DNA of 64,000 nt from an uncultured Solirubrobacteraceae bacterium (GCA_964588985.1 CAZPQW010000011.1:1-64000); one strand, 5' to 3'; counted from the stretch's first letter, positions 1 to 12,970 are shown. Program-made: numbers and translations. Notes: generated by a model from the letters alone, not told the origin.

Positions 1-255
1 GGGGGCGCCCCGGGGGCGCCCGGGGAGAACGAGCCCGTGGCTCCGGGGGCGCCCGGGGAGCCGCCCGGGGGCACCCCGGGCCGCCCGACGTTCAGGGCGC
101 GCGCGCCCCGGGCCGCGCCCCGGAAGCCCCGGGCCGTCCCGCCGCGCGCCGCACAGACCCGGGAGGAGCCTCACGCCGAGACGCCCGCCACGGCCGCGGA
201 CACGCGCCCCTCCGGCGGTCTGTTCGGTGGCCTGCTGGACGGGCTGATGTCATGA
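1..255 (+). CDS. Phage protein, 5'-partial, Gly/Pro-rich (GAPG repeats) with amphipathic C-terminus
   Basis: Frame is open from position 1 and ends GGLFGGLLDGLMS; stop overlaps the next ATG (ATGA at 252-255). Confidence 0.65.
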   Translation, partial: GGAPGAPGENEPVAPGAPGEPPGGTPGRPTFRARAPRAAPRKPRAVPPRAAQTREEPHAETPATAADTRPSGGLFGGLLDGLMS

Positions 256-770
256 GCGCGGTTCTCGAGCTGGAGTACACCGAGGGTGGTGGCCCGGGGA
301 TCGTCGAGCTCCCGGCCGATGTCCAGTTCGGTGGGGAGCCGGCCCCGGATGACCAGCAGGCGCTGCCGGGGGAGTACCCGGGGTGGGAGCAGGAGACCGT
401 CGAGCAGTTCTTGATGGGGCTCGGCGCCGGGGTGCACATGATGATCGGGGCGGCCGAGAAGGACTGGCTGATGACGCAGCGCGACCTCGAGCGGATCGCG
501 CCGCCGATGACCCGTATCGCGAACCGTTGGGAGCCCGCGCTTCGGCTCTCCCCGTTCGCTGACCCGCTGCTCGTCGCGCACGGGTTCGCGCTCTATGGGT
601 GGCGCAGCGCCCTGGAACGCTCCCGGGCGCTCCGCGACCAGGCCGCCGAGGAAGCCCCCGAGACGGCCGCCGCCGGGTATGTCCGCACCGACGACGACGA
701 GGACGAGCCCGAACCCGCCTTTCAAGCAGTGCAGCCCTACTTCCAAGACGGCGCGAGGCCGAGGAGCTAG
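252..770 (+). CDS. Phage hypothetical protein (possible assembly/membrane-associated factor)
   Basis: 172 aa, coupled to the upstream ORF, with a weakly hydrophobic segment PLLVAHGFALYGW. Sits upstream of the packaging ATPase. Confidence 0.75.
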   Translation: MSAVLELEYTEGGGPGIVELPADVQFGGEPAPDDQQALPGEYPGWEQETVEQFLMGLGAGVHMMIGAAEKDWLMTQRDLERIAPPMTRIANRWEPALRLSPFADPLLVAHGFALYGWRSALERSRALRDQAAEEAPETAAAGYVRTDDDEDEPEPAFQAVQPYFQDGARPRS

Positions 771-773
771 CCC

Positions 774-1163
774 ATGACCGAGAGCACCGAGCACGAGCAG
801 GACGACGTCGTCGACGGCGAGATCATTGAGGACACCGGGACCGCCGCGGAGAAGATCCTCGGGACCCTCCGGATGCTCTCCACCCCGGACGAGGACGCCG
901 GCGAGCTGCAGCTGATGCTCGCGACCGTCTGCATGGGCCTCGAGCGGAGCATCAGCGAGGCGCTGCACGAGCAGCAGCAGACGGGGGAGCTCGATGAGTT
1001 CGTGCTCGCGCTGACGAGGTTCCTCGCGACGCACCGCAGCTCCGGCGCCCGGCAGCTTCTCGTGGTCGAGATGCCGCGCCACCAGAACATCCCGGCCGGG
1101 ACCCGGCTGCATCTCCTCGACGAGGCCGCGGAGGCCGCGGCGAGCGCGACCAGCCCGCTATGA
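774..1163 (+). CDS. Phage hypothetical acidic protein
   Basis: 129 aa with SD GAGGAG upstream; stop overlaps the ATPase start. Confidence 0.75.
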   Translation: MTESTEHEQDDVVDGEIIEDTGTAAEKILGTLRMLSTPDEDAGELQLMLATVCMGLERSISEALHEQQQTGELDEFVLALTRFLATHRSSGARQLLVVEMPRHQNIPAGTRLHLLDEAAEAAASATSPL

Positions 1164-1891
1164 GAGCGATCCGGGTTCACCCCGAGGCCGACCGGGTGCT
1201 GCTTATCAGCCGCACCGGGAAAGGCAAGACGACGTTCGCGCGGTTCATCGCCGAGCAGCTGCAGCCCTGCCGGCTGATTGTGGTCGACCCGAAGGACGAA
1301 CTCGACTTCGGAGTGCAGAAGCTTCGCACCCCCGCGGAGCTCGCGCTCGGGATGCACCAGCCGATCGTGCACTACGTCCCCGCGAGCTTCGACCGCGACT
1401 CGCTCGAGGAGGCCAGCCAGATCATCTGGCTTACCCCGGGCCCCTACATCCTGTGGCTGGACGAGCTCAGCGAGCTCTCGAACCCGAACTGGTGCCCCAG
1501 CGGGTTCCGGCTCGCCGAGACACAAGGCCGACAGGGCCGCAAGCTCGTGATCGCATGCACACAGCGCCTCGCGGAATCCCACCCCGTGTTCCGCAGCCAG
1601 GCAAGCCACGTGATCGCGCTCGTCCCGTGCCCAGTCGAGAAAGACCTCAAGATGCTCGCGGGTGACGCGATACCCCGCGAGCCCGAGGAGATCCGCGCCG
1701 AGCTCGAGAGCCTGCACGCCCAGCATGGCGACTTCAGCCACCTCTGGTATGTCGAGGACGGCGACGAACTCCGCCGCTGTCAGCCGATCCCGCTGCCGAA
1801 CGGCCCCCGGGTGCCCCCCGGGGAGGGCACGGGCCCGCAGCGGCCCCCCGCTACCGCGCTCGAGGAGCCGGCGGCAGAGTCCGCGCCATGA
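1160..1891 (+). CDS. FtsK/HerA-superfamily genome packaging ATPase (PRD1 P9/A32-like)
   Basis: Walker A SRTGKGKT, IVVDPK strand, Walker B LWLDE, arginine finger QGRQ, sensor CTQR and RSQASH motif; 243 aa; next to the capsid gene. Confidence 0.88.
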   Translation: MRAIRVHPEADRVLLISRTGKGKTTFARFIAEQLQPCRLIVVDPKDELDFGVQKLRTPAELALGMHQPIVHYVPASFDRDSLEEASQIIWLTPGPYILWLDELSELSNPNWCPSGFRLAETQGRQGRKLVIACTQRLAESHPVFRSQASHVIALVPCPVEKDLKMLAGDAIPREPEEIRAELESLHAQHGDFSHLWYVEDGDELRRCQPIPLPNGPRVPPGEGTGPQRPPATALEEPAAESAP

Positions 1892-2022
1892 AAAAGATCG
1901 GATTCAGCTTCGGGTCGTTCTTCAAGATCGGACTGATCGCCATGGTGTTCATCCTCCTGGCGAAGTGGGTCCTCGCGAAGGTCAACGTCCCCGGGCTCTC
2001 AGCGGTAGCACAGGGCGTCTAA
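1888..2022 (+). CDS. Small membrane protein (44 aa), packaging-vertex candidate (P20/P22-like position)
   Basis: MKKIGFSFGSFFKIGLIAMVFILLAKWVLAKVNVPGLSAVAQGV. ATGA overlap with the ATPase; below the ORF track cutoff. Confidence 0.8.
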   Translation: MKKIGFSFGSFFKIGLIAMVFILLAKWVLAKVNVPGLSAVAQGV

Positions 2023-2026
2023 GCAG

Positions 2027-3115
2027 ATGCCTACCCCGTCGAACGCTCCGGCGACCAGCACCGGTGAAAACGAGGTTCAGGACCCAGTCCTGTTCGCCGA
2101 GCTCACCGAGCGCCAGGCGATGCCGCAGACGACCACCACGATCAAGGGCATGGCGAAGAAACAGCGCCTGCAGGTCGAAAAAGTCGGGGTCATCAGCCGC
2201 GTCAGGCTGCAGATCAAATGGAAGTTCAAAACGAAGGCCGCAAGCAAACCGGTCCTCAACCCGGGCTTCCCCTACAAGATGCTCGCCGAGCTCGCGATGC
2301 AAGCCAACGGCGTCACCGGGATCATCGACTGCAGCGCCATGACGCTCGCGCAGCGCCGCGACCGCGTGTACCGCAACCCCACAACCGCGATCGAAAACGG
2401 GCCGGCCGCCGGGACCACCCTCGAAGCCGCGAAATCCTACGAAGGCACGTTCGTGGTCGAAGTCCCGATCGCGCATGACATGGAAAGCCTGATCGGGAGC
2501 CTCCTCGCGCAGAACGAGGAGACCAACCTCAGCTTCCTACTGACGTGGGCCAGCGAAGCCGAAATGATGCACTCCGGCGAAATCGAAGGCTTCGAAGGCG
2601 AAATCGTGTGGGGCAGCACCGTCTTCAGCATCGGCTCAACGGTCGTCGGTAAGAAGGAAATGACCGTGCTCCCAGACCTGTCCGCGTTTCACGGGATCAC
2701 CGAACAGGAACCGAACCTCAACGGCACCGGCAACCAGAAGATCGAACTGACCCGCACCGAGGGGCAGCTGCTGTGCCTCACGTTCGCGATCCTCAACAAA
2801 GCCGGCGGCCAGGCGACCCTCAAGCCCCAGGAACTCACCAAGATCCAGCTCGAATACGGCGGCAACAAGGACCCCCTCGTGTGGCTCCCCGCGAGCGAAC
2901 TGATCGAGGAGAACGCGGACGACTACAACGGCGCGCTGAGCCCCGGAGGCGTCCAGTTCGCCGCGATCGACAACGAGCGCGACAACAGCCACCGCGACAT
3001 GATCATCCCCGCCGACCTCGTCGAATTCCGTGCCGTGCTCGGGGTCCCGACCAGCTTCACCCCCGAAGAAGCACGGACCCTCGTCGCGTCCGAGACGCTC
3101 TACCCGGCGGTCTAG
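2027..3115 (+). CDS. Double jelly-roll major capsid protein (Bam35/betatectivirus-like)
   Basis: 362 aa, beta-rich. Motifs FPYKML..NG, VEVPI..LIGSLLAQNEETNL, LPDLS, RDMI..LVEF and terminal VASETL match my recollection of the Bam35 capsid in colinear order. Confidence 0.85.
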   Translation: MPTPSNAPATSTGENEVQDPVLFAELTERQAMPQTTTTIKGMAKKQRLQVEKVGVISRVRLQIKWKFKTKAASKPVLNPGFPYKMLAELAMQANGVTGIIDCSAMTLAQRRDRVYRNPTTAIENGPAAGTTLEAAKSYEGTFVVEVPIAHDMESLIGSLLAQNEETNLSFLLTWASEAEMMHSGEIEGFEGEIVWGSTVFSIGSTVVGKKEMTVLPDLSAFHGITEQEPNLNGTGNQKIELTRTEGQLLCLTFAILNKAGGQATLKPQELTKIQLEYGGNKDPLVWLPASELIEENADDYNGALSPGGVQFAAIDNERDNSHRDMIIPADLVEFRAVLGVPTSFTPEEARTLVASETLYPAV

Positions 3116-3120
3116 CAGCG

Positions 3121-3486
3121 ATGCCCGTCCCCGGGTTCGACGACCCCGCCCTGAGCAGCCGCCCCCCAGCCGGTGATCTCTTCTTCGCGCCCGCCGCCGG
3201 GCTCGCCGTCTCCAAACACGAGGTGATCCGCGGCGGCGGACGCAGCAGCCCCGCCGGCGCACAAAGCCTCGACGCCAGCGCGCCGAGCTTGATGTTCGGG
3301 TCCGGGAAGTACACCAGCGACGGCGAAGTGATCGTGCACAGCAGCAAGAGCGTGCGCGGGCACTACAGCGAAATCTTGAACTTCCACGGCAGCCCCGCCC
3401 CCTGGATCCTAATCGGGATCCTCCTCGTCGCCGGGATGCTGCACCTCTCCGCCGAAGGCAAGTTCGGGTTCGGGGGCCGGGTGTGA
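3121..3486 (+). CDS. Phage membrane protein (C-terminal TM)
   Basis: ATG 5 nt after the MCP stop; TM segment PWILIGILLVAGMLHL. Confidence 0.72.
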   Translation: MPVPGFDDPALSSRPPAGDLFFAPAAGLAVSKHEVIRGGGRSSPAGAQSLDASAPSLMFGSGKYTSDGEVIVHSSKSVRGHYSEILNFHGSPAPWILIGILLVAGMLHLSAEGKFGFGGRV

Positions 3487-3609
3487 GTGGAATCACTCGC
3501 ATCGATACTCCTCACCCTGCTCGTGATCGCTCTCGTACTCGCATACGCGCAGGGCGGCACCGCGGGCGTGGGGAAGTGGCTGCACGCGAAATTCGTCGGG
3601 GAAACCTGA
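3487..3609 (+). CDS. Small membrane protein (40 aa)
   Basis: GTG immediately after the previous stop; MESLASILLTLLVIALVLAYAQGGTAGVGKWLHAKFVGET. Confidence 0.72.
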   Translation: MESLASILLTLLVIALVLAYAQGGTAGVGKWLHAKFVGET

Positions 3610-3705
3610 ATGCCGGCGGTCGGGATCGTGCTGTTCTTGATCGGCCTGTGGATCTTCATCCGCACAGTCCGCGGGAACCTCGCGAAGACGCTCACGGGTG
3701 GCTGA
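3610..3705 (+). CDS. Small membrane protein (31 aa)
   Basis: ATG immediately after the previous stop; MPAVGIVLFLIGLWIFIRTVRGNLAKTLTGG. Confidence 0.72.
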   Translation: MPAVGIVLFLIGLWIFIRTVRGNLAKTLTGG

Positions 3706-3706
3706 C

Positions 3707-4576
3707 ATGACCCACGAGCAGCGGGCCCGCCGCTACCTCCAGGCCAGCATGAACGCCGGCTACACCAACCTCCCCGCCGAGCGCCGTGAAGCCTACGAGG
3801 ACCAGATGCGCGCGCACGAGCGCGCCTACCCCCGCGTGCGCGAACACGCCCTCGCCGGCGCCGACAACGACTTCGACGAGCGCCTGAACGCGGGGGAGCG
3901 CGAACACCAGCGCCACCTCCGCCGCCAAGACGGCCTCCAGGAAGCCGACGTGCACCGCATCCGCGGCGAGCTCCGCGGCAACACCCCCAAGGCGTCCCGC
4001 CGAGCTCGCCGGCCATCCGGGACGACTGCGGGGCCGCGCGCCGCGCAGCGCGCCGTCGCGGCCGGCGGCAGCGCGATCACCGCGGCCGCCAGCGGCGGCG
4101 GGAACATCGTCATGTACTTCATCGGCGGAGCGCTCCTGCTCAGCCTCTTCTACCTCCTCGTCAAGGGCAAGGGCGCCGGCGCGCTCACCGGCATCGTCAA
4201 CACCATCGTCGGGGCCGCCGGCGCATTCGTGAAGCCCGTCGACCCGGTCGCCGCCGCGCAACGTGCACTCGGCGCGAGCCCCACCACCGGCGCGAGCCCC
4301 ACCACCCCCAGCGGGGCCGGCCAAGCAAACATCACCGCGGGCGGGAACCCCGGCCCAGCCGCGGGAGGAGCCACCGCCCCGCCCCCTGGCCAAGTCGGGA
4401 GCCAGCTCGCGGACCGCAACGCCAAAGCACGCGACGTCGCACGGGGATTGCATTTCAAAGGGGTGCTCGAACGCGAAGTCAAGGAGGGCGTCTACACCCT
4501 CCCGATCGCCGATCGCGTTCTCAAGAGCACCTTCCCCAATTACGCCCGCGAGACCCGCGAACTCGCCGGAAAGTGA
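3707..4576 (+). CDS. Phage membrane protein (central TM; DNA-delivery/membrane protein candidate)
   Basis: Charged helical N-terminus, TM IVMYFIGGALLLSLFYLLV and a Pro/Thr/Gly linker. Start 3698 (GTG) is also possible. Confidence 0.78.
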   Translation: MTHEQRARRYLQASMNAGYTNLPAERREAYEDQMRAHERAYPRVREHALAGADNDFDERLNAGEREHQRHLRRQDGLQEADVHRIRGELRGNTPKASRRARRPSGTTAGPRAAQRAVAAGGSAITAAASGGGNIVMYFIGGALLLSLFYLLVKGKGAGALTGIVNTIVGAAGAFVKPVDPVAAAQRALGASPTTGASPTTPSGAGQANITAGGNPGPAAGGATAPPPGQVGSQLADRNAKARDVARGLHFKGVLEREVKEGVYTLPIADRVLKSTFPNYARETRELAGK

Positions 4577-4580
4577 GCCC

Positions 4581-4718
4581 ATGCGCAACTTCCTCAAGAC
4601 AGCGTTCTTCCTGATCCTCGCCTACCTCGCGCTGATCCATTTCACCGGGTTCAGCAAGGACGTCAGCACCGTCCTCGGAGGCACCGGCGAACTGGTCAAG
4701 GACTTCCAGGGCCGGTAG
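4581..4718 (+). CDS. Small membrane protein (45 aa)
   Basis: MRNFLKTAFFLILAYLALIHFTGFSKDVSTVLGGTGELVKDFQGR, 4 nt after the previous stop. Confidence 0.78.
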   Translation: MRNFLKTAFFLILAYLALIHFTGFSKDVSTVLGGTGELVKDFQGR

Positions 4719-4722
4719 ACCC

Positions 4723-5004
4723 ATGGCACGGTTCGACACGCGGTTCCGTCAGCCGCCCGTGAAGATCGCGCGCGCCCAAGCCCGCAGCCAGCAGGCTGGG
4801 CTCATCACGGGCGTCACGCGGACCATCCGCGGCGCCGGCGATTTCGGGATGCGCGAAGCTCGCATGGGCAGCGTCCCGCTGAAGCTCCGGATCGGCAAAG
4901 GGATGGGGCCCGCCGCGGCCGGCGCGCTCCCGGTCGGCCGCACGCGGCGCAAGCGCGGCTACCCGCCGATCCCCGTCTCCGCCGCGAGCGCCCTGAGGGA
5001 ATAG
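4723..5004 (+). CDS. Basic phage protein (93 aa)
   Basis: Fills the gap exactly between neighbours; Arg/Gly-rich. Confidence 0.62.
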   Translation: MARFDTRFRQPPVKIARAQARSQQAGLITGVTRTIRGAGDFGMREARMGSVPLKLRIGKGMGPAAAGALPVGRTRRKRGYPPIPVSAASALRE

Positions 5005-5580
5005 ATGCCCCTGCCAGGAGCCCCGCCGAAGAAGAACAGCCGCCGGTGGATGATCTACGCCGGCGCCGTCGTCGTGCTCCTGGTCGTGCTGCTCGTCGTG
5101 AAAGGCAAAGGCGCCACGGAACCCAAAGCAGCCTCACCCGTCGTCGAAGCCCCACCGAACCTCGGGGGCGGCACCGGCGAAACCGGGGGTCTCGGCGGTG
5201 GCGGGACTGTCGCGCTTGAAGGGCCGCAGGGCAAAGAAGGCCCATCAGGCCCCCAGGGGCAGCAGGGCCCGGTAGGCGAAAACACGGTCACCAGCGAAAC
5301 GGCCGCAGCCCAGGCTACCGCCGCCGCCGCGACCGCCGTGAGATCCGCCGCGGCCGCCACGAGCTCGAGCCGGGCGGCGAGCAAGGCAGCAACCGCCGCG
5401 AAGAAAGCCGCGGCCCACAAAGGCGCCCCGAAGAAGACAGCGCCGAAGCCCCACAAGAGCACCAAACACAAGGCGCCCGCGAAGAAACCGCCCGCTCACC
5501 ACGCACCCGCGCATCACGCGCCGGCGCATAAACCTGCAGCGAAGCACAAGGCCGCACCCAAACCGCACAAGAAGAAGTAG
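5005..5580 (+). CDS. Membrane-anchored protein with collagen-like segment and Lys/Ala/Pro/His-rich tail
   Basis: TM WMIYAGAVVVLLVVLLVV; 7 G-X-Y triplets at 5221-5283; histone-H1-like C-terminus. Confidence 0.82.
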   Translation: MPLPGAPPKKNSRRWMIYAGAVVVLLVVLLVVKGKGATEPKAASPVVEAPPNLGGGTGETGGLGGGGTVALEGPQGKEGPSGPQGQQGPVGENTVTSETAAAQATAAAATAVRSAAAATSSSRAASKAATAAKKAAAHKGAPKKTAPKPHKSTKHKAPAKKPPAHHAPAHHAPAHKPAAKHKAAPKPHKKK

Positions 5581-5622
5581 CGCGTGCGCTTCCTACCCCG
5601 ACACCGAAGGAGAACCAGCCAC

Positions 5623-5943
5623 ATGTCACTGCAGCCCCTCCCAGCCAGCCCCGAGGCCTCGCCCGCCGGCGAGCCCACTGTCACCCCGGAGATCCAGGCG
5701 CTCATCGACCGCGAGGTCAGCGCGTTCGCGCAGGCCCACGGCATCCAGGCCCCCGTCGCCGAGCAGGCCGCGAGCGCCCTCGAGGCGATCGCCGCGGACG
5801 CCGAGCACTCCACGTTCGCGGAGAAGCTCGAGCACATCGCTCAGAACGGCTACCAGGCCGCCCTGCACGAGTGGGAGGACGCCCCCCCATCGCTGAAGGC
5901 GCTCGTGACCGTCGTCGGCGAGCTCGTCACGAAAGTCGGCTAG
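5623..5943 (+). CDS. Phage acidic helical protein
   Basis: SD GAAGGAG upstream of ATG 5623; 106 aa. Confidence 0.72.
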   Translation: MSLQPLPASPEASPAGEPTVTPEIQALIDREVSAFAQAHGIQAPVAEQAASALEAIAADAEHSTFAEKLEHIAQNGYQAALHEWEDAPPSLKALVTVVGELVTKVG

Positions 5944-5956
5944 AGGAACCACGGGG

Positions 5957-6100
5957 ATGAAGTGGCCCAGCACCCAGACGCGAGAAGCACTGAAGCTCAA
6001 CCTCGAGCTGCTCCTGCTGCTGATGCTGGTGCCACTCGTCCTCTACACCCTCGTCAAGGACCGCAAGGCCGGCCTACAACTCGCCCTCAACGCACGATGA
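5957..6100 (+). CDS. Small membrane protein (47 aa)
   Basis: MKWPSTQTREALKLNLELLLLLMLVPLVLYTLVKDRKAGLQLALNAR; SD GAGGA; ATGA overlap with the next ORF. Confidence 0.72.
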   Translation: MKWPSTQTREALKLNLELLLLLMLVPLVLYTLVKDRKAGLQLALNAR

Positions 6101-6378
6101 GCACCCAAGCCCCCCCAGCCCCCGAGACCACCGAGAGCCAGCGCCACCGCGAGGGCATCGGGATCTTGATCCTCGAGCCCGCGCTCGAGGAGGAGATCCG
6201 CGATCTCGGCGGACCCGGGGGCCCGCCCCGCGAGCCGGCCGCCCGCGGCCGCGGGCGAGGAGGCGACCGCCCGGACCGCATCAACCGATACCTCTTGATC
6301 TTCGCGGGGATCTGCCTCCTCGCGGCCTACTTCGCGATCATCGCCGTCCTGAACGACCCGCGCCGCGGAGACCGCTGA
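6097..6378 (+). CDS. Phage membrane protein (C-terminal TM, 93 aa)
   Basis: TM YLLIFAGICLLAAYFAIIAVL; coupled on both sides. Confidence 0.72.
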   Translation: MSTQAPPAPETTESQRHREGIGILILEPALEEEIRDLGGPGGPPREPAARGRGRGGDRPDRINRYLLIFAGICLLAAYFAIIAVLNDPRRGDR

Positions 6379-7037
6379 TGGCTGTCACGGCGGGAGCCAA
6401 AGCAGTCCCGGGCGCGGGCGGCGAACTGAACCGCGAACAGTTCGCGGAGAAGGTGCTGCAGTCGGTCGGGATCCCGGTCAACAAGACGTCGGTCGGGAAG
6501 TTCGTCGCATGGGAGAAGCAGGAGGGCGGGCACTGGAACAACACCGCTCGATACAACCCCCTCAACACCACGCTCGCGCTCCCCGGCGCCGCGAACACCG
6601 GCACCCAGGGCAACATCAAGGTCTACAACAGCTGGCAGCAAGGGATCGAAGCGACCGTGAAGACCCTGAAGGCGCCCTCCTACGCAGGGATCCTCGCAAA
6701 CCTAAAGTCTGGGACCGTCGCCGACTTCAAGATCGCCGTCAACACCAGCCCATGGGGCACGAAGTTCAGCAACCTCGGTGAAGCGATCGAACCGACCGAA
6801 GGGCTCTTCGGGCCCGCTGAGAAGCAAGGCGGTGTCACACAGACAGCCGAACAGGGCCTCGAAGAAGCCGGCCACACGATCTCCGGGCTCTTCAACACGA
6901 ACTGGGGCGAACTGGGGATGAACATCGTGCTGTTGCTCGCGGGGGCGGCCCTGGTGGTGTACGGGATCATGGTCGCTGTCCGCCCGCGCGAGAGCGCGTT
7001 CTCGCTCCCGCGGATGCCTATGCCGGTGCCGGTGTGA
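6378..7037 (+). CDS. Membrane-anchored lysozyme-like muralytic enzyme (entry enzyme; PRD1 P7/Bam35 gp26 analogue)
   Basis: AW..EGG, YNPLNT, Y.SW..GI.AT..TL and SPWGT motifs typical of lysozyme-fold peptidoglycan hydrolases; C-terminal TM. Confidence 0.72.
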   Translation: MAVTAGAKAVPGAGGELNREQFAEKVLQSVGIPVNKTSVGKFVAWEKQEGGHWNNTARYNPLNTTLALPGAANTGTQGNIKVYNSWQQGIEATVKTLKAPSYAGILANLKSGTVADFKIAVNTSPWGTKFSNLGEAIEPTEGLFGPAEKQGGVTQTAEQGLEEAGHTISGLFNTNWGELGMNIVLLLAGAALVVYGIMVAVRPRESAFSLPRMPMPVPV

Positions 7038-7041
7038 AGGG

Positions 7042-7275
7042 GTGGAGGGCCATGCGGAGGATCTACGGCTCTTGGGCTATCGGCTTGACAGGCTCGAGGA
7101 GCGGGTGCGCGGCGACTACCTCACGGAGGAGCACGCTGTGAACCGTTTTGTGACACGCGAGGAACTCGAGCGCAGCGCGAAGGTGCGCCGTGAATGGTGG
7201 CCGATCATGCTGATGGCGCTCGCCGGGATCCCGGGAACCGTCAACCTCATCTTGACCTTGAAAGGCGGCCGCTGA
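7042..7275 (+). CDS. Small coiled-coil plus C-terminal TM protein (holin-like candidate)
   Basis: 77 aa; RLDRLEER helix followed by a hydrophobic C-terminus. Confidence 0.62.
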   Translation: MEGHAEDLRLLGYRLDRLEERVRGDYLTEEHAVNRFVTREELERSAKVRREWWPIMLMALAGIPGTVNLILTLKGGR

Positions 7276-7586
7276 TGGCTTGGGATTCACTCGAACTGGG
7301 GCAGCCCGGGAACCCCGCGTGCCCCGACGTGATGGAACCCAAGAGCGAACTGCTATGCGTCGCGTCGACCCGGCTCGTGCTCCAGACGAGCGTCGCCGCG
7401 GTCTTCATCGAGCTCGGCGTGATGCCTCACGGGAAGGGCGTCGGGCTCGCGAGCGTGCAGTGGCTTGGCGAGAAACCGTTCTTGCCGATCGTCGCGTCCC
7501 TGGCCCGCGAGTTTGACGCGGTCCGGGTCCGCAACTACACGAAAGGCGTCCCCGCGCAGGTCTTGATCAGCGTCGAGGGCTTGTGA
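7275..7586 (+). CDS. Penton (single jelly-roll) candidate
   Basis: 103 aa, beta-strand-rich, directly before the spike gene as in tectiviruses; TGATG coupling. Function inferred from position. Confidence 0.55.
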   Translation: MAWDSLELGQPGNPACPDVMEPKSELLCVASTRLVLQTSVAAVFIELGVMPHGKGVGLASVQWLGEKPFLPIVASLAREFDAVRVRNYTKGVPAQVLISVEGL

Positions 7587-9958
7587 CCCACGAACTCGAG
7601 CAGCTGCAGCAGCTCGTCGAGGAATTCTCGACACAGCTACAGACCGCGGTCGCGCGGATCGAGGAGCTCGAGTCGCGCCCCGAGGCCGACCAGATCGCCG
7701 GGAACACCGCGCGGCTGAACGCTGCCGGCGAAGTCGAAGAGATCACGACCGGCAACGAAGCGCTCGCCGGCGAGATGCCATGGGCGACCGGCGAAGACAC
7801 CGAGGTGTGGCTCAGCCCCCTCGCGATCAACCCGAAGGCCCCGCCCTACAACTGCAAGTTCGACCTCTACGCGACCGTGAAAGGCTCGATCGCGGAAGAA
7901 AGCAACGAACTCACCGTCGGCGGGTACATCTTCACCACCGCAGACATCGGCAAGCAGCACAACGTGCAGGGCGCCGGCGTCGCCGCCGGCGAGCTATCCG
8001 GCGAAATCATTGGGGTCACGAAAGGCAAAGCGGTGCTGTCCGTGGCGGCGTCGACGACGGTCGCGGGAGCGAACACGCTCTTCGGGACCGACGACACGAT
8101 CGGCCTGAACAAAGCATTCGCCGACGTCAGCGGGAGCGGTCATGGCGCGATCCCGCTCGCCCGCGAAATCATCATGCCGCAGGGCGCCGCGCTCGTCACG
8201 AAACTCCTGGCGCCCCGCCACGGCGCGGTGCGCGGGTGCACGCCGGCGTGGCAGCAGACCGGACGCGTGTTCAGCTTCTACGAGGGGTGGACACAGAACG
8301 GCGGGACCACCATCTACCAGAAGTGGGGTCAGACCGAAGACGCCGTCCGCTGCAAACAGATCAGCGGCCTAGAATGGGCCGGGATCATGGAAGGGTTCTG
8401 CGTGCTGCAGCACCCCACGAACACGGGCGGGAAGGGCATCAGCTTCCGCAACGCCGCCGGCGAACCACTGCTCCTGGTCGACGGCGCGAAATTCAGGAAC
8501 ATCCGCGTCGAAGGGTTCGCGAGCGCCGGCATCGAGATCCCCACCGGCGCGGTCCCCGGCCTCTTCGAGAACGTCAACGTCGAACAAAACGGGCTCGTCG
8601 ACGGCAGCCCCGGCATCCTCTACACCTGCCACGGCACCGGCGACGACATGACGTTCACGTTCCCCTCCGGGGCGAAGAACGCGACCGCGCTGATCGAAAT
8701 CAAAGGCGCCGGCGCGACCAAAGGCAAGATCCGGATCACCGACCTCCACAGCGAGTTCGGGCCCAACGAAATCCGCCGGCCGGGCGGGGCGCCATGCCAA
8801 GCCAACGCGGTGATCCTGAACAACATCCCACGCGCCTGCGTCGACATCGCCGGGATCACCCACCGCGCCGACTCGAACAGCAAAGGCTTCGGCGCGGAAT
8901 CCGAACTCGGCGCCGCGATCAAGAGCACCGGCGGGACACCCAACCTCACCTGGAAAGCCTGCAACGTCACCGTGCAGGAACCACAAACCCAAGGCTACGC
9001 CTACGAAAACGTCACCAAGAAAGAAAAGATCGCCGCGGCCGGCGGGACACTCCTCGTCACCGGCAACGGCGAATACAACCTCGGGGAAGGCCACAGCCGC
9101 AGCGTCCGCGCGATCGGCGACGAAGCGACGAACATCACGCTCACCGACGACCTCCTCGTCTACACCACCACGCTCACCGGTGAACACGCCGCGAACCTCC
9201 CGCAGGTCGCCGGCGCCGAAGGCCCCGCCCCCCGCCTCGGCCAAGAATTCGAGCTGAAAGACGCCACCGGCCTGATGTCCAACACGCTCCTCGTGAACGT
9301 GGCAGCGCACGCAGGCGACACGCTCGTAGGAGACACACAGCTCGTCTCCCCATACAGCACCCTCAAAGTGGTCTGGGACGGCACCGTGTGGGTCGGGACC
9401 CTCACCGTCAACCCCGTCATGGACTGGAAGAATCCCACATCCGGTGAGGAGGTCATGCCGCTCGCGGAGGCCCAAGCAACCGCGCTCGCGCTGACCACCG
9501 GGCAGATGCTCTTCACGATCTTCGAGGCGAAACGCACCGAGCCCATAACGAAGATTCGGATCCCGACCGGCACCACCGGACACCTCGCGGAAGGCGCCGG
9601 CGCCGCGGTCGAAGCCGGCATCTTCACCGTCGCCAGCAACGGCGCGCTCGCGCTGATCACGAAGACCGCGAGCGAAGTGAAAGCCATGGAAAAAGCCCAA
9701 GAAGAGACCCAACAAGCACTCCTCGCTGAATGGGCAAAGAAACGCGGCGTGAAGTACGCCTACGGGCTCCTCGTCGTCAGCAGCGCGATGCCAACGACAG
9801 TCGGAGCGAACTTCGCATCCGCCGCGATCGCGGGCGGCGGGAACGGCCGGCCTCGGCGCTGCGGCGTCGTCACCGGCCTCGCGAGCATCCCCGCAGAAGT
9901 CGCCCCAGGATCGATCGCGAACCTCGTCCGCGCCCCCTACGCCATGTTCGTGCCGTGA
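7583..9958 (+). CDS. Spike/receptor-binding protein with beta-helix (pectate-lyase-like) region
   Basis: 791 aa; N-terminal coiled coil; GTDDTIGLNKAF..IIMPQG tailspike-type motif; beta-helix-like repeats. Confidence 0.8.
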   Translation: MTHELEQLQQLVEEFSTQLQTAVARIEELESRPEADQIAGNTARLNAAGEVEEITTGNEALAGEMPWATGEDTEVWLSPLAINPKAPPYNCKFDLYATVKGSIAEESNELTVGGYIFTTADIGKQHNVQGAGVAAGELSGEIIGVTKGKAVLSVAASTTVAGANTLFGTDDTIGLNKAFADVSGSGHGAIPLAREIIMPQGAALVTKLLAPRHGAVRGCTPAWQQTGRVFSFYEGWTQNGGTTIYQKWGQTEDAVRCKQISGLEWAGIMEGFCVLQHPTNTGGKGISFRNAAGEPLLLVDGAKFRNIRVEGFASAGIEIPTGAVPGLFENVNVEQNGLVDGSPGILYTCHGTGDDMTFTFPSGAKNATALIEIKGAGATKGKIRITDLHSEFGPNEIRRPGGAPCQANAVILNNIPRACVDIAGITHRADSNSKGFGAESELGAAIKSTGGTPNLTWKACNVTVQEPQTQGYAYENVTKKEKIAAAGGTLLVTGNGEYNLGEGHSRSVRAIGDEATNITLTDDLLVYTTTLTGEHAANLPQVAGAEGPAPRLGQEFELKDATGLMSNTLLVNVAAHAGDTLVGDTQLVSPYSTLKVVWDGTVWVGTLTVNPVMDWKNPTSGEEVMPLAEAQATALALTTGQMLFTIFEAKRTEPITKIRIPTGTTGHLAEGAGAAVEAGIFTVASNGALALITKTASEVKAMEKAQEETQQALLAEWAKKRGVKYAYGLLVVSSAMPTTVGANFASAAIAGGGNGRPRRCGVVTGLASIPAEVAPGSIANLVRAPYAMFVP

Positions 9959-10635
9959 CCCAAGAGCAACGCATCGCCCAGCTCGAGCAGAAGGTCCAAG
10001 CCCTCGAAGGCCACCAAGACCAAATCACCCCCGGCGCCTACAGCATCAACTCCGAAGGCAAGATCGAGGAGAAACTCACCGGGCACCTCGAAGCCCAAGG
10101 CATCGACCTGCCACTCGGATCCGGTGAACCAAGCAGGATCACATGGGGCGCCAGCGGCCGCCAGGGCGTGATCTTCACAGGCCCCTCAGGAGCCTCGGGG
10201 GCCGTCCTACAGATGAGGGCCTACTCGGAAACCGAGCAGACCCTGCTCGATCTCGCCGCCGACGGAGAAGGCAACGGGCTGGCGAACCTCGTCGTCGATG
10301 CGCACGCAGTTACGCTTCTCGACGCGGACGGCAACAGCGCATTCGCGCGCCTCAGCACCCTCGGCAATATCCGTCTCTCATTCGGGATCGCGACCCTCAC
10401 CTATCCCGGCGGCAGCGAACAGAGCGATACCGCGACTATCGCGAGCTTCCCCGAAGCCAAAAGCGGCGGCGCGCTCTACTTCACCCAGGCCGTCGAGGCC
10501 GAAGGCAACAGCCGCTTCGGCGTGGTCGTCAACCCCGCCGCCGACAGCTTTGACCTCTACCTCCAGAGCACCGTGGGGGAACCCCCAGCCGGCACCAAAG
10601 AGCACTGCTACTGGCTCGCGATCCTCATCGACTGA
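9955..10635 (+). CDS. Second spike/vertex protein (226 aa)
   Basis: GTGA overlap; starts MTQEQRIAQLEQKVQALEG; N-terminus resembles that of the 791-aa spike. Confidence 0.75.
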   Translation: MTQEQRIAQLEQKVQALEGHQDQITPGAYSINSEGKIEEKLTGHLEAQGIDLPLGSGEPSRITWGASGRQGVIFTGPSGASGAVLQMRAYSETEQTLLDLAADGEGNGLANLVVDAHAVTLLDADGNSAFARLSTLGNIRLSFGIATLTYPGGSEQSDTATIASFPEAKSGGALYFTQAVEAEGNSRFGVVVNPAADSFDLYLQSTVGEPPAGTKEHCYWLAILID

Positions 10636-10650
10636 AAGGAGAGAACCGCC

Positions 10651-10719
10651 ATGCGCCACCGCAAACCGAAGGGCCACAAAAAGGGCTGCAAATGCGTCGT
10701 CTGCCGACGCAAACGCTGA
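10651..10719 (+). CDS. 22-aa highly basic peptide with H-x3-C-x-C-x2-C motif
   Basis: MRHRKPKGHKKGCKCVVCRRKR; strong SD AAAGGAG upstream; fills the gap between spike and lysin. Confidence 0.62.
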   Translation: MRHRKPKGHKKGCKCVVCRRKR

Positions 10720-10754
10720 TAGGACTGAGTCTCAAACGAGGAAGGGAGCGGCCC

Positions 10755-11402
10755 ATGTGGGTCATGTACGACAGCACCGACGTGGGCCAAATCCCCACCA
10801 ACGCACAAGCCGTCGCCGGCTACGTCGGCGGACACTGGCCGACCTACCCCGAGCTCGTCAAGCGCTTCCCGCACGCCCAACACCTCTCGATCGCCGTCAG
10901 CGCCCAAGAGGACGCCGACTGCCTCGACATCGAGAAAGGCGACGCCACACCAGCCGACGCCCCAGGCTGGTACCACCGCCAACGCGCACGCGGCCTCACG
11001 CGGCCCGCGTTCTACGGCAGCCTCTCGCTCATCCCCGCGATCATGAGCACCCTCGGGTTCGCCGGGATCCCACGCAGCGCCTACCGCATCCTGAGCGCCC
11101 ACTACACCGGACACCCCCACATCTGCGGTCCCGCGTGCGGCCTCTCACCGCCCGCGGACGGCACCCAATGGACTGGCGGGAACAGGTACGACGAGTCGCT
11201 CCTCAGCAGCGCGTTCTTCAACGCCCCGCCCCCGAGCCCGCTCACCCCCGAAGAGCAGCTCGTGATCGCGCACATCCGCCGCCTCCGCCAAGAGATCTAC
11301 AACGCCGCCGAACACGGCCAGCTACCCAACGGACACCCCACCCAACGCGGCTGGCGCCTCCACCACCGCGCCGAGCGCTACCAACTCCTCAAACACCCCT
11401 GA
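10755..11402 (+). CDS. Putative endolysin (GH25-like/TIM-barrel glycoside hydrolase)
   Basis: MYDS..IP..A.AVAGYVGG, LDIEKGDA, AHYTG.PH and TQW..YDES motifs; SD AGGGAG before ATG 10755. Confidence 0.72.
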   Translation: MWVMYDSTDVGQIPTNAQAVAGYVGGHWPTYPELVKRFPHAQHLSIAVSAQEDADCLDIEKGDATPADAPGWYHRQRARGLTRPAFYGSLSLIPAIMSTLGFAGIPRSAYRILSAHYTGHPHICGPACGLSPPADGTQWTGGNRYDESLLSSAFFNAPPPSPLTPEEQLVIAHIRRLRQEIYNAAEHGQLPNGHPTQRGWRLHHRAERYQLLKHP

Positions 11403-11462
11403 GCTGGGGCTCACGCTGAGGGAGCGTAAAGGATTCTGTCCGGTCCAACCTGCAGGATCGCT

Positions 11463-11481
11463 CTAACGTCACCAACGTTAG
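11463..11481. promoter_or_regulatory. Perfect inverted repeat (operator candidate) CTAACGT-N5-ACGTTAG
   Basis: Contains a TAACGT -10-like hexamer and overlaps the SD (AGGAGG) of the 55-aa ORF. Confidence 0.5.
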
Positions 11482-11493
11482 GAGGGTCTTCCT

Positions 11494-11661
11494 ATGCAGG
11501 TCGTTTTGGAGCGCGAGAAGGAAACGAAGAACACCGTGCGGTTCAGGGAGCCGGACGGCGACGGAGAGCAGCAGCTCGGCATCATCTACGTCCCCAAGAG
11601 CACGGTGAGCGCTCTCGGGGATCCTGCTCTGCTGCAGATCACGCTCGCGGCAGCGGCCTAG
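11494..11661 (+). CDS. Small protein (55 aa), possible AbrB/swapped-hairpin DNA-binding protein
   Basis: MQVVLEREKETKNTVRFREP..LGIIYVPKSTVSALGDPALLQITL; strong SD AGGAGG. Confidence 0.7.
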   Translation: MQVVLEREKETKNTVRFREPDGDGEQQLGIIYVPKSTVSALGDPALLQITLAAAA

Positions 11662-11662
11662 A

Positions 11663-11715
11663 ACGACACCGGCCGGACAGGCGCTATTGCGTTCCGTCCG
11701 GCCGGGTCGTAACAT
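11663..11715 (+). promoter_or_regulatory. Long hairpin overlapping a sigma70-type promoter TTGCGT-17-TAACAT
   Basis: Arms at 11663-11678 and 11696-11710; -35 at 11687-11692, -10 at 11710-11715, ATG 8 nt downstream. Confidence 0.55.
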
Positions 11716-11723
11716 TCGCGCCT

Positions 11724-12188
11724 ATGGATGGGGTCTCATCCACAAGCGCACGATCCAATCTAGCCAACCGGCCCGATAGATCGCACGGACGCTTGCAAGC
11801 AGAACTCCGCCGCGACTTCGAAGCGGCGTTTGGAAGGCAGCCCCGGACCCGCCAGCTCGAGCACCTCGAGAACGCCGCCACGTGGATGATCCGGACGCGC
11901 CAGCACTCTGGGCCCGCGATCCGGCGGAGCTGGCCACAGATCGCGCGCGGCTGCGGGTTCCCGGATCTCGGGACCGTGCGCGCCGTCAGCGATCGCTGGA
12001 CTCGCCAGCTTTACCGGACGTTTGGCTATCTTCGTGAGATGGGCTGGGTCGACGGCTGGGAGGCCGTGATAGAGAGCAAGGGCAACTCGAGCGGGATCAT
12101 CTTGCGCGTGGGCCCCAAGGCTCCTGCGGGCCCGCTACCCTCCGGGGCTCGCCGGAGTAGCTCAGCTGGTAGAGCGCCTGTCTTGTAA
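11724..12188 (+). CDS. Winged-HTH protein (replication initiator or regulator candidate) overlapping the tRNA 5' half
   Basis: SWPQIARGCG..QLYRTFGYLREMGWV plus a beta wing; preceded by a good promoter; TAA stop lies in the tRNA anticodon loop. Confidence 0.6.
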   Translation: MDGVSSTSARSNLANRPDRSHGRLQAELRRDFEAAFGRQPRTRQLEHLENAATWMIRTRQHSGPAIRRSWPQIARGCGFPDLGTVRAVSDRWTRQLYRTFGYLREMGWVDGWEAVIESKGNSSGIILRVGPKAPAGPLPSGARRSSSAGRAPVL

Positions 12189-12223
12189 ACAGGGGGTCAG
12201 GGGTTCGAGTCCCCTCTCCGGCT
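12151..12223 (+). tRNA. tRNA-Thr(UGU)
   Basis: Acceptor GCCGGAG/CTCCGGC, D-arm GCTC/GAGC, anticodon stem CCTGT/ACAGG with loop CTTGTAA (TGT at 12184-12186), T-arm AGGGG-TTCGAGT-CCCCT; CCA not encoded. Confidence 0.97.
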
Positions 12224-12243
12224 TCGCAAGCTCCCCGGCTCGC

Positions 12244-12861
12244 CTAAGGGGCCAGACGCTCGATCAACCAGCCGTCGCTCTGACGCCGGTAGCGCAGTCG
12301 GTCGTGGAGGCGATCTTTGCGCTGCTGCCAGAACTCGAAGGTCTCCGCGGCGAGGCGGAAGCCGCCCCAATTGCTCGGCAGCGGAAGCTCGCTGTCCTCG
12401 TACTGCCCGTCCAGCTCGGCGACACGGCGCTCCAGCACCTGGCGACTGTCGATCGTGTGGCTCTGCGGCGAGGCGAGCGCGCTGAGCTGGCTGCCGCGCG
12501 GGCGTTCGCGGACATAGGCGGCCGTCTCCTCGGTGCTGGTGCGCGCGACGGGACCCTCGATCCTCACCTGCCGGCCGAGGACGTCCCAGTGAAAGAGCAG
12601 CGCCGCCCGCGGATTGGCGGCGAGCTCGCGACCCTTGCGACTGTCGTAGTTCGAGTAGAAGACGAACCCGCTCTCGTCGAAGCCCTTGAGGAGGACCATG
12701 CGAACCGACGGAGCGCCGTCCGCAGACGCGGTGGCGAGCGCGACGGCTTCGGCCAGGCGAACGTCGTCGGCCGCCTCCGCCTCCCGATACCACGCGGCGA
12801 ACTGGCGCACGGGATCGGGGTGGACATCCTCCTCGCGCAGCGGCTGTCCGTGATCGGTCAC
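12244..12861 (-). CDS. pdxH: Pyridoxamine 5'-phosphate oxidase
   Basis: PSVRMVLLKG, FYSNYDSRKG, RQVRIEG and EFWQQRKDRLHDRLRY motifs. Start 12861 (GTG, leaderless) or 12879. Confidence 0.93.
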   Translation of the reverse strand: MTDHGQPLREEDVHPDPVRQFAAWYREAEAADDVRLAEAVALATASADGAPSVRMVLLKGFDESGFVFYSNYDSRKGRELAANPRAALLFHWDVLGRQVRIEGPVARTSTEETAAYVRERPRGSQLSALASPQSHTIDSRQVLERRVAELDGQYEDSELPLPSNWGGFRLAAETFEFWQQRKDRLHDRLRYRRQSDGWLIERLAP

Positions 12862-12970
12862 GCTGGCATTGTGTCCCATCAGCGCTCGGGCACCGTGATC
12901 GTGCCCCAAGGATTGATATCTGCGCCGATATCTGTTTGCTGTCAGCTGAATGTTGGCTAGGCTGCGCCGC

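Follow-up and report, generated by a model that had tools for sequence, protein, structure and literature searches.

Here, an element of 16.4 kb in the genome of an uncultured Solirubrobacteraceae bacterium (GCA_964588985.1) is identified, with high though not complete confidence, as a temperate virus that has no tail and a double jelly-roll (DJR) capsid of the PRD1/Bam35 type, integrated in the chromosome of its host. The stretch of DNA analysed, hereafter the window, comprises bases 1-64000 of contig C11 (CAZPQW010000011.1) in a genome assembly (G000) of 3.41 Mb, 48 contigs, 95.9% completeness and 68% GC. The right 12.2 kb of the provirus occupies positions 1-12181 of the window and would form its late arm, encoding virion and lysis functions; the left 4.2 kb lies at the start of a second contig, C38.

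Capsid protein and packaging ATPase

The protein of 362 amino acids (aa) encoded at 2027-3115 matches phrog_5863 (expect value, E, 7.2e-8), a family whose label, 'minor head protein', and length of 356 agree with Bam35 ORF18 in RefSeq. A full-library search with this protein gave 126 representatives at E <=1e-3, and a profile made from 75 of them matched PRD1 P3 (E 1e-13) and the STIV coat protein (E 6e-11); 69 of the 75 members of this wider family match phrog_5863. When the structure was modelled with AlphaFold on the 75-member alignment (predicted local distance difference test, pLDDT, 94.2; predicted template modelling score, pTM, 0.92), Foldseek ranked PRD1/PR772 P3 first among PDB structures (E 2.8e-17, template modelling score 0.74), ahead of the STIV capsid and then the PBCV-1 and iridovirus capsids. 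The DJR fold predicted for this protein in the initial annotation is thereby confirmed at the level of the model, and the 362-aa product is a DJR capsid protein. Searched with tblastn against phages, it also matches phiG2 ORF13 (E 1e-5). PM2 P2 was absent from the eight PDB sequences matched by the capsid profile and from the Foldseek matches listed.

The gene at 1160-1891 had been read as a P9/A32-type packaging ATPase, and the searches bear this out by placing it in the Bam35 gp14 family. Its product matches phrog_2666 (E 4.1e-14), and tblastn against phages returned only eight Bacillus tectivirus records, all at ORF14 (Bam35, pGIL01, Sato and Sole; E 3e-3 to 1e-2, coverage 81%). An invariant G-x-G-K-T motif and other conserved columns are retained in seven relatives, and a profile search of the PDB gave generic P-loop matches only.

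Scans of 17 window proteins against Pfam and 12 against PHROGs found no match to terminase, portal, HK97 or tail families, as had been claimed from the sequence, and two apparent exceptions are explained by other means. RefSeq gives Bam35 ORF14, the packaging ATPase, the same 'terminase large subunit' label that phrog_2666 bears, and the 'tail fiber' PHROG matches on the 5005-5580 product (best E 1.4e-5) are confined to a collagen-like Gly-X-Y stretch.

Extent of the provirus and identity of the host

Because base 1 of the window is also base 1 of contig C11, it is the end of the contig that cuts the element off, rather than the limit of the window. The rest lies on C38, and the join was checked independently in a public sequencing run, X3, possibly itself a source sample of the G000 assembly, in which one contig (record 9; 21,051 nucleotides (nt), depth 28) covers the whole element together with host flank. 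Its order is host flank, left attachment site (attL), 4,156 nt, a 32-nt repeat of window 50-81, 18 nt and window 1-13000, the last with 0 differences, and the distance from attL to the right attachment site (attR) is 16,387 nt. As this contig spans the join, the provirus is contiguous and the break between C11 and C38 corresponds to a short repeat. Rhizosphere runs contain the element at full identity. The junction with the host, which had been flagged as a possible misassembly, is thus genuine on this evidence, and the right boundary first placed at 12188 was essentially correct, the attachment core ending at 12181.

The contig break falls inside a low-complexity gene encoding a Pro/Gly-rich protein, and the 32-nt near-repeat of window 50-81 upstream of base 1 probably stopped the assembler. 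The start of this gene, which continues in window 1-255, lies on the reverse strand of C38 bases 1-96, and a homologous C-terminal end is present in the related locus L003. A blastn search of G000 with window 1-12200 (E 1e-5) returned the self match only, indicating no second copy or overlap at that threshold; the attL copy was detected only by a short-word search with the tRNA region.

The RpoB segment of G000 is 90-94% identical to RpoB of G001, a metagenome-assembled genome of Solirubrobacteraceae (class Thermoleophilia, Actinomycetota), and by this marker the host, a soil actinobacterium, is a Solirubrobacteraceae bacterium of the class Thermoleophilia.

Integration into the 5' half of a tRNA gene

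ARAGORN calls a single tRNA gene in the window, tRNA-Thr(TGT) at 12151-12223 on the plus strand. A 31-nt copy of its nucleotides 1-31, identical at 29 of 31 positions, is found at C38 4178-4208 and constitutes attL; no tRNA gene was called on C38 by ARAGORN, and both copies are present on the X3 contig. The element is therefore bounded by direct repeats, one of them within an intact tRNA gene, and the same is true of two relatives. In G001, on a contig of 3.5 Mb, 32-nt direct repeats lie 16,712 nt apart and equal the 5' half of the adjacent tRNA-Gly(GCC), and the metagenome locus L020 is flanked likewise at tRNA-Gly. In its left arm, on C38, the element carries an intact gene for a 267-aa tyrosine integrase (PF00589, E 7.6e-35). 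The left flank, proposed earlier as the place to look for an integrase and attL, thus holds both and carries no tailed-phage or conjugative genes.

Integration at a tRNA had also been proposed, and the direct repeats and integrase support it with one correction, namely that the 5' half is used and the element lies upstream. All three integrated copies lie upstream of the intact tRNA gene, with a repeat that equals its first 31-32 nt. Integrating elements are reported normally to use the 3' part of a tRNA gene and to lie downstream of it, an arrangement that these proviruses do not show. Since the repeat is the 5' half, the element sits upstream of the tRNA and supplies its adjoining upstream sequence. 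The mismatches in attL fall at tRNA positions 21 and 27, so crossover is placed within nt 1-20, with host sequence kept at the mismatched positions in the intact tRNA.

The target is the only gene with this anticodon in G000 (ARAGORN; the other Thr anticodons are CGT and GGT). Its native upstream region has been displaced by 16.4 kb, and expression of tRNA-Thr must consequently depend either on sequence of the provirus or on transcripts running through from the truncated gene described below. A consensus promoter and terminator scan of 11300-12400 found nothing. Separately, a short contig in run X5 that matches at window position 12180 has the tRNA 5' half followed by an anticodon arm of different sequence; the probable source is another tRNA, or another strain with the same first 30 nt, rather than an attachment junction.

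A gene split by integration

The last open reading frame (ORF) of the late arm, 154 aa at 11724-12188, runs into the tRNA, and its last 13 codons are tRNA sequence. On C38 the same frame passes through the attL core and continues for 240 more codons. When longer proteins related to the 154-aa product were sought, an uninterrupted homologue of 396 aa, P0216, was recovered on a contig of 17,292 nt: residues 1-156 align with the window ORF (56% identity, E 5e-55) and residues 151-382 with the C38 ORF (68% identity, E 1e-100). The two aligned pieces join at the residues encoded by the attachment site, and a frame plot also supports the split. In the relative L013, a 351-aa ORF spans a tRNA-like attachment sequence; this ORF matches the N-terminal part of the split gene at E 5e-7 and the C-terminal piece only at E 0.31.

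With the phage attachment site (attP) inside a gene of about 390 codons beside the integrase, integration separates an N-terminal winged helix-turn-helix (wHTH) domain, left at attR, from the C-terminal 240 aa, left at attL. Judged from these alignments, the free genome encodes one protein of about 390 aa and the prophage only its N-terminal wHTH part. The right end of the element had been described as a small DNA-binding or wHTH module; that description does not hold, as the ORF is the N-terminal fragment of the split gene. In the lineage integrated at tRNA-Gly, a different gene of 232-281 aa occupies this place and is not split.

The left arm and the absence of protein-primed replication

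The left arm is read on the reverse strand from C38 4208 to 1. It starts with attL and the C-terminal piece of the split gene, which is convergent with the integrase gene. Beyond the integrase lie genes for a 124-aa wHTH-like protein, two zinc-ribbon proteins and a DUF7574 protein (E 8e-12), then two small genes on the opposite strand and finally the start of the Pro/Gly-rich gene that ends at window position 255. The DUF7574 protein (phrog_6881, E 3.7e-8) and a zinc-ribbon protein are encoded at C38 1576-1914 and 800-1186, minus strand; the zinc-ribbon protein has weak similarity to an HNH-endonuclease PHROG (E 6.6e-4). Neither of these proteins points to a replication enzyme. The two small genes (C38 196-426 and 419-772, plus strand) are directed away from the late operon, occur in every relative at 40-62% identity and have no family match; they are candidates for a lysogeny or early-control module.

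Protein-primed replication was sought in several ways. The polymerase family PF03175 was absent from G000 in a search that detects the positive controls Bam35c and phiG2, and tblastn queries with the polymerases of Bam35 and phiG2 and with the terminal protein of Bam35 gave nothing at E 1e-2 in G000. When the related loci and window 1-13000 were searched in the same way, the one match was at chance level (E 0.64) and lay in host DNA to the right of the tRNA (12268-12555). No match resembling an inverted terminal repeat (ITR) was found between the two ends of the element, and Pfam and PHROG scans of its proteins found no recognisable replication gene.

Relatives and a probable circular form

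Capsid homologues number 90, at 29-73% identity (88 of them at >=45%), and nearly all come from metagenome-derived sources; two are named Solirubrobacteraceae by their source. For 17 of the 90, the longest contig measures 15.3-17.1 kb, which equals the unit length of the element, and for 11 it exceeds 30 kb, reaching 3.66 Mb. In all six of the longer loci examined, the late genes follow the same order, and an integrase (60-70% identity) is present together with the two divergent small genes. The region between the integrase and the divergent small genes varies among relatives, as do the distal spike and lysis genes.

A circular intermediate, postulated in the initial annotation, is supported by L013, a contig of 17,072 nt whose two ends share a 123-nt direct repeat without mismatch, as expected of a circle of 16,949 nt. 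In L015, the 14,325 of 16,111 nt examined contain only tRNA-Gly nt 1-27 beside the integrase gene and no tRNA gene (ARAGORN), which fits an attP. L013 (1469-1494) and L014 (1154-1179), neither with a tRNA gene, have in common a 26-nt sequence that resembles a tRNA 5' half, its first 15 nt equal to the start of two G000 tRNAs; this sequence is probably their attP, for a tRNA of their host.

The copy in G001 shows some irregularities. In locus L009 (G001:C3:155500-175400) the late block and the two divergent small genes are inverted relative to the module of attachment site, gene and integrase, unlike in L020 and the other relatives. The rpoB gene of G001 is broken into three frames and its capsid gene is frameshifted; as rpoB is also broken, faulty assembly rather than decay probably explains the capsid frameshift. 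Since the broken frames suggest indel errors in the G001 assembly, the inversion could be either genuine or artefactual.

Organisation of the late operon

Positions 1-12188 of the window contain 23 ORFs, all on the plus strand, with GC content at third codon positions (GC3) of 0.75-0.95, typical for coding sequence here. Gaps are <=5 nt at 16 of the 22 junctions, and eight of those 16 are overlaps. The description of about 25 co-oriented, coupled ORFs therefore stands for orientation and coupling and is corrected to 23 for the count. A Kyte-Doolittle scan detected a transmembrane-like segment in 10 of 22 ORFs and, with the ORF at 6097-6378 added, in 11 of 23, with 7275-7586 marginal; the earlier figure was about 10. 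This content is an indirect hint that the virions may have an internal lipid membrane. The features of the window are as follows.

1-255, plus strand: C-terminal part of a Pro/Gly-rich basic protein, first gene of the late operon (frame open from base 1, GC3 0.92)
252-770, plus strand: conserved 172-aa protein, possibly an assembly factor (48-59% identity in six related loci; no Pfam or PHROGs match)
774-1163, plus strand: conserved acidic 129-aa protein (49-68% identity in related loci; no family match)
1160-1891, plus strand: packaging ATPase, 243 aa, of the Bam35 gp14/PRD1 P9 kind (phrog_2666, tblastn, conserved motif)
1888-2022, plus strand: 44-aa single-pass membrane protein (transmembrane-like residues 14-32; conserved in relatives)
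2027-3115, plus strand: DJR capsid protein, 362 aa (phrog_5863, profile, AlphaFold, Foldseek)
3121-3486, plus strand: protein of about 120 aa with a C-terminal transmembrane segment, conserved beside the capsid gene
3487-3609, plus strand: 40-aa membrane protein
3698-4576, plus strand: 292-aa protein with two central transmembrane-like segments (43-61% identity in relatives)
4581-4718, plus strand: 45-aa membrane protein
4723-5004, plus strand: 93-aa basic conserved protein
5005-5580, plus strand: 191-aa protein anchored by an N-terminal transmembrane segment (residues 16-34), with a collagen-like run of Gly-X-Y and a basic tail rich in Ala, Lys and Pro
5584-5943, plus strand: 119-aa protein (GC3 0.92; no family match)
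5957-6100, plus strand: 47-aa membrane protein
6097-6378, plus strand: 93-aa protein with a C-terminal hydrophobic segment (GC3 0.90)
6378-7037, plus strand: 219-aa protein with a C-terminal transmembrane anchor (residues 183-201), candidate virion-associated wall hydrolase
7042-7275, plus strand: 77-aa protein with a C-terminal transmembrane segment
7275-7586, plus strand: 103-aa small beta-barrel protein at the tectivirus penton position (AlphaFold pLDDT 85.4)
7583-9958, plus strand: 791-aa candidate spike or receptor-binding protein, varying between relatives (phrog_32881, 'pectin lyase activity', E 3.2e-5, residues 99-179)
9955-10635, plus strand: 226-aa protein, variable distal module
10692-11402, plus strand: 236-aa protein at the lysin position (the syntenic gene of L003 encodes an Amidase_2, PF01510, E 1.7e-15)
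11494-11661, plus strand: 55-aa protein (GC3 0.86)
11724-12188, plus strand: 154-aa prophage-form N-terminal fragment of the wHTH gene of about 390 codons (alignment to P0216)
12151-12181, plus strand: attR core, tRNA-Thr(TGT) nt 1-31 (ARAGORN; whole tRNA 12151-12223)

The order of ATPase, small membrane protein, capsid, membrane protein genes, vertex/spike block and lysis is that of tectiviruses, as first noted, but the labels transglycosylase, penton and lysin attached to individual genes were not confirmed by Pfam, PHROGs, PDB or fold searches. When the family alignments g3127, g3698, g252 and g774 were compared by hhalign with 40 single Bam35 and phiG2 proteins, the probability never rose above 28.6 (g252 against phiG2 ORF10).

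The only family hint for the 219-aa candidate wall hydrolase is phrog_9589 'endolysin' (E 0.021). The 103-aa protein is 44-64% identical in four relatives; it is not called a penton here, since the structures matched by its model, with E >1e-3, were cupin-type barrels and unnamed viral proteins. For the 791-aa candidate spike, tblastn found no homologue in the related loci, and the 236-aa protein at the lysin position had no match in Pfam, PHROGs or the PDB. The tail of the 5005-5580 product is rich in Ala, Lys, Pro and His, and the protein has a weak Pfam Collagen match and a weak match to the histone-H1-like HC2 family (E 0.034). A DNA-binding role inside the virion, with the protein anchored in the membrane, is possible.

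Alternative explanations

An active temperate virus has to be distinguished from a cryptic or domesticated remnant, in which the structural module has been kept without excision or infectious particles and has either become fixed in the chromosome or been recruited by the host, perhaps as a transfer-agent-like particle. This alternative is considered unlikely. It would account for the absence of an excised circle, an attP junction or an empty attB among the matches listed from four runs, in contigs, which drop rare forms, as well as for the missing replication gene; moreover, a full-length product of the split gene is impossible while the element is integrated. Against a remnant, however, the 23 late ORFs and the integrase gene all have uninterrupted frames and coding-type GC3, the attachment repeats differ at only 2 of 31 positions, and there are unit-length relatives without host DNA, one of them with a terminal repeat. 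The element was also absent from the two other genomes of the same genus and the 26 others of the same family that were sampled, and hence is not a fixed host trait.

It is still less probable, and indeed quite improbable, that the element is a satellite or an integrative plasmid with capsid genes that needs a helper virus for replication or assembly. Its small genome and the lack of an identifiable replication enzyme would suit such a dependence, but the ATPase, capsid, membrane proteins, vertex-region block and lysis-position gene are together in one operon, and G000 contains no second DJR capsid gene for a helper (one match). Finally, there is almost no likelihood left that the assembler wrongly joined host DNA to a conventional tectivirus with a linear, protein-primed genome, or to a linear plasmid prophage: the Bam35-type capsid protein and ATPase and the breakage of the element across two of the 48 contigs are as expected, but polymerase, terminal protein and ITR were not found, an integrase and tRNA-derived direct repeats are present, the same arrangement lies within the 3.5-Mb contig of G001, and both junctions are spanned by the separate X3 contig; this reading is already refuted unless both assemblies share an artefact.

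An integrated, temperate DJR virus remains the preferred explanation, and the following results, together with the failure to find an excised form, count against it or against particular parts of it. Only one of 401 sampled genomes of the class carries the family, G000 itself, and two scans of IMG/VR contigs, one by single-protein and one by alignment patterns, confirmed no relative, although with few short peptide patterns these are weak as evidence of absence. The terminal repeat of L013 could stem from a terminally redundant or concatemeric template. With respect to the split gene, Pfam and PHROGs gave no family, and its language-model neighbours (Phage_rep_O, HTH_36 and DnaT-like clusters, sharing 117-144 of 256 features) are a lead only; inspection of the full-length form revealed no ssrA-like tag, the C-terminal ends of P0216 and the C38 ORF being Arg-rich. 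Among the late genes, PDB sequence matches for the 219-aa candidate wall hydrolase included no hydrolase, only lectins at E >=0.039, and PDB sequence searches for this protein and the candidate lysin and spike yielded no meaningful match, none of the three having a significant family assignment. The best PDB fold matches of the 103-aa protein were cupin-type barrels (E 4e-3, template modelling score about 0.5), which are weak and non-viral, and in BFVD nothing fell below E 1e-3, with only unnamed viral proteins above it and no penton among the matches listed. A homologue search with P0216 returned P0216 alone.

Proposed life cycle

Taken as a temperate virus, the element would follow a cycle in which its genome circularises and is inserted by the integrase through recombination between attP and the 5' half of the tRNA gene. 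Integration would truncate the wHTH protein, and the shortened, lysogen-only form may help to hold lysogeny, possibly as a repressor in the manner of phage BPs; another possibility is that a replication initiator is inactivated by the split. Excision would restore the full-length gene, and host machinery would replicate the genome from an origin perhaps bound by the wHTH protein. The ATPase would then package DNA at a vertex into DJR capsids with an internal membrane, and the distal genes would supply attachment and lysis.

More tentatively, and with somewhat greater doubt than belief, the element may represent an undescribed family-level tectivirus-like lineage of Solirubrobacterales, in which the linear, protein-primed replicon has given way to a circular genome and a tyrosine integrase, and tRNA genes are targeted at their 5' half, with the virus providing the sequence in front of the host's only tRNA-Thr(UGU) gene. 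In such a lineage integration would itself be the genetic switch: with the wHTH gene split, the prophage would make only the DNA-binding N-domain, either a repressor or an inactive initiator, and excision would rebuild the full protein.

Comparison with known viruses

The Tectiviridae are defined by linear, protein-primed genomes, and the element is classed as tectivirus-like and not as a member of that family because searches for a polymerase, a terminal protein and an ITR were negative. Capsid and packaging ATPase families are common to this element and to the betatectiviruses (Bam35, pGIL01, Sato and Sole) and the Lysinibacillus phage phiG2, and the likeness to Bam35 and phiG2 extends to the order of ATPase, small membrane protein, capsid, many small membrane protein genes, vertex/spike block and lysis, and to a size of about 15 kb. 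Unlike them, the element lacks a protein-primed polymerase, a terminal protein and ITRs; it has instead a tyrosine integrase, tRNA attachment sites, chromosomal integration and probably a circular genome. Temperate tectiviruses are described as persisting as linear plasmid prophages (PMC5894146, PMC11768872), and isolated actinobacterial tectiviruses as having ITRs and no integrase (PMC11768872).

Among the nearest known assemblages is the Bam35-Toil group of DJR viruses and proviruses of Actinobacteria and Firmicutes, some members of which have no polymerase (Yutin et al. 2018, PMC5894146). Hosts within the Terrabacteria, the major capsid protein, the ATPase and lytic genes are in common with that group, and by its capsid and ATPase the element belongs with it. 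A difference is that a tyrosine integrase is present here in every relative examined, although the genome maps of PMC5894146 may hold similar elements. Integrating DJR viruses are represented in the same source by PM2-like corticoviral prophages and by the STIV/TKV4/MVV group with tyrosine integrases (PMC5894146); these resemble the element in combining a DJR capsid, a tyrosine recombinase and chromosomal integration, but the capsid here is nearest PRD1 P3 both by profile and by fold.

The initial annotation knew of no isolated DJR virus for this host group. For Actinobacteria as a whole this is incorrect, since Toil, Delta- and Epsilontectivirus and Microbacterium phages have been isolated (PMC5894146, PMC11768872); for Thermoleophilia it stands, in that no described DJR virus was found in the literature, although comparable proviruses of Actinobacteria may be listed in the supplement to PMC5894146.

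The closest precedent for the split gene is the integration-dependent immunity of actinobacteriophage BPs, whose repressor gene contains attP (Villanueva et al. 2015, PMC4557955). In both cases attP falls within the gene of a DNA-binding protein beside the integrase, the prophage product is shortened at its C-terminus and the hosts are Actinobacteria, and by this analogy the truncated product could be the active prophage repressor. BPs is a tailed phage, however, and its repressor loses 33 residues that include an ssrA-like tag, whereas here about 240 residues are removed and no such tag is visible. A further parallel is offered by the 'suicidal' SSV-type integrases of archaea, in which the attachment site lies within a viral gene and this gene is partitioned on integration at a tRNA gene (PMC8371274); there the integrase itself is split, whereas here the integrase is whole and the neighbouring gene is split.

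Polymerase-less and integrating DJR elements are thus already in print (PMC5894146). Four features are new: a Bam35-type virion paired with a tyrosine integrase and a probably circular genome without a protein-primed polymerase (pPolB), the host class, the tRNA 5'-half site and the integration-split gene.

Elements of this kind seem to be under-detected, since 90 capsid homologues are present in metagenome collections and none was confirmed in the IMG/VR pattern scans. The integrase and its pairs of attachment sites are possible tools for actinobacteria that are hard to engineer, and attachment at the 5' half of a tRNA together with an integration-split gene provides testable mechanisms for locking in lysogeny. 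More broadly, the lineage documents the exchange of modules within the kingdom of double jelly-roll viruses, in which a Bam35/PRD1-type virion has been joined to a different strategy of replication and lysogeny.

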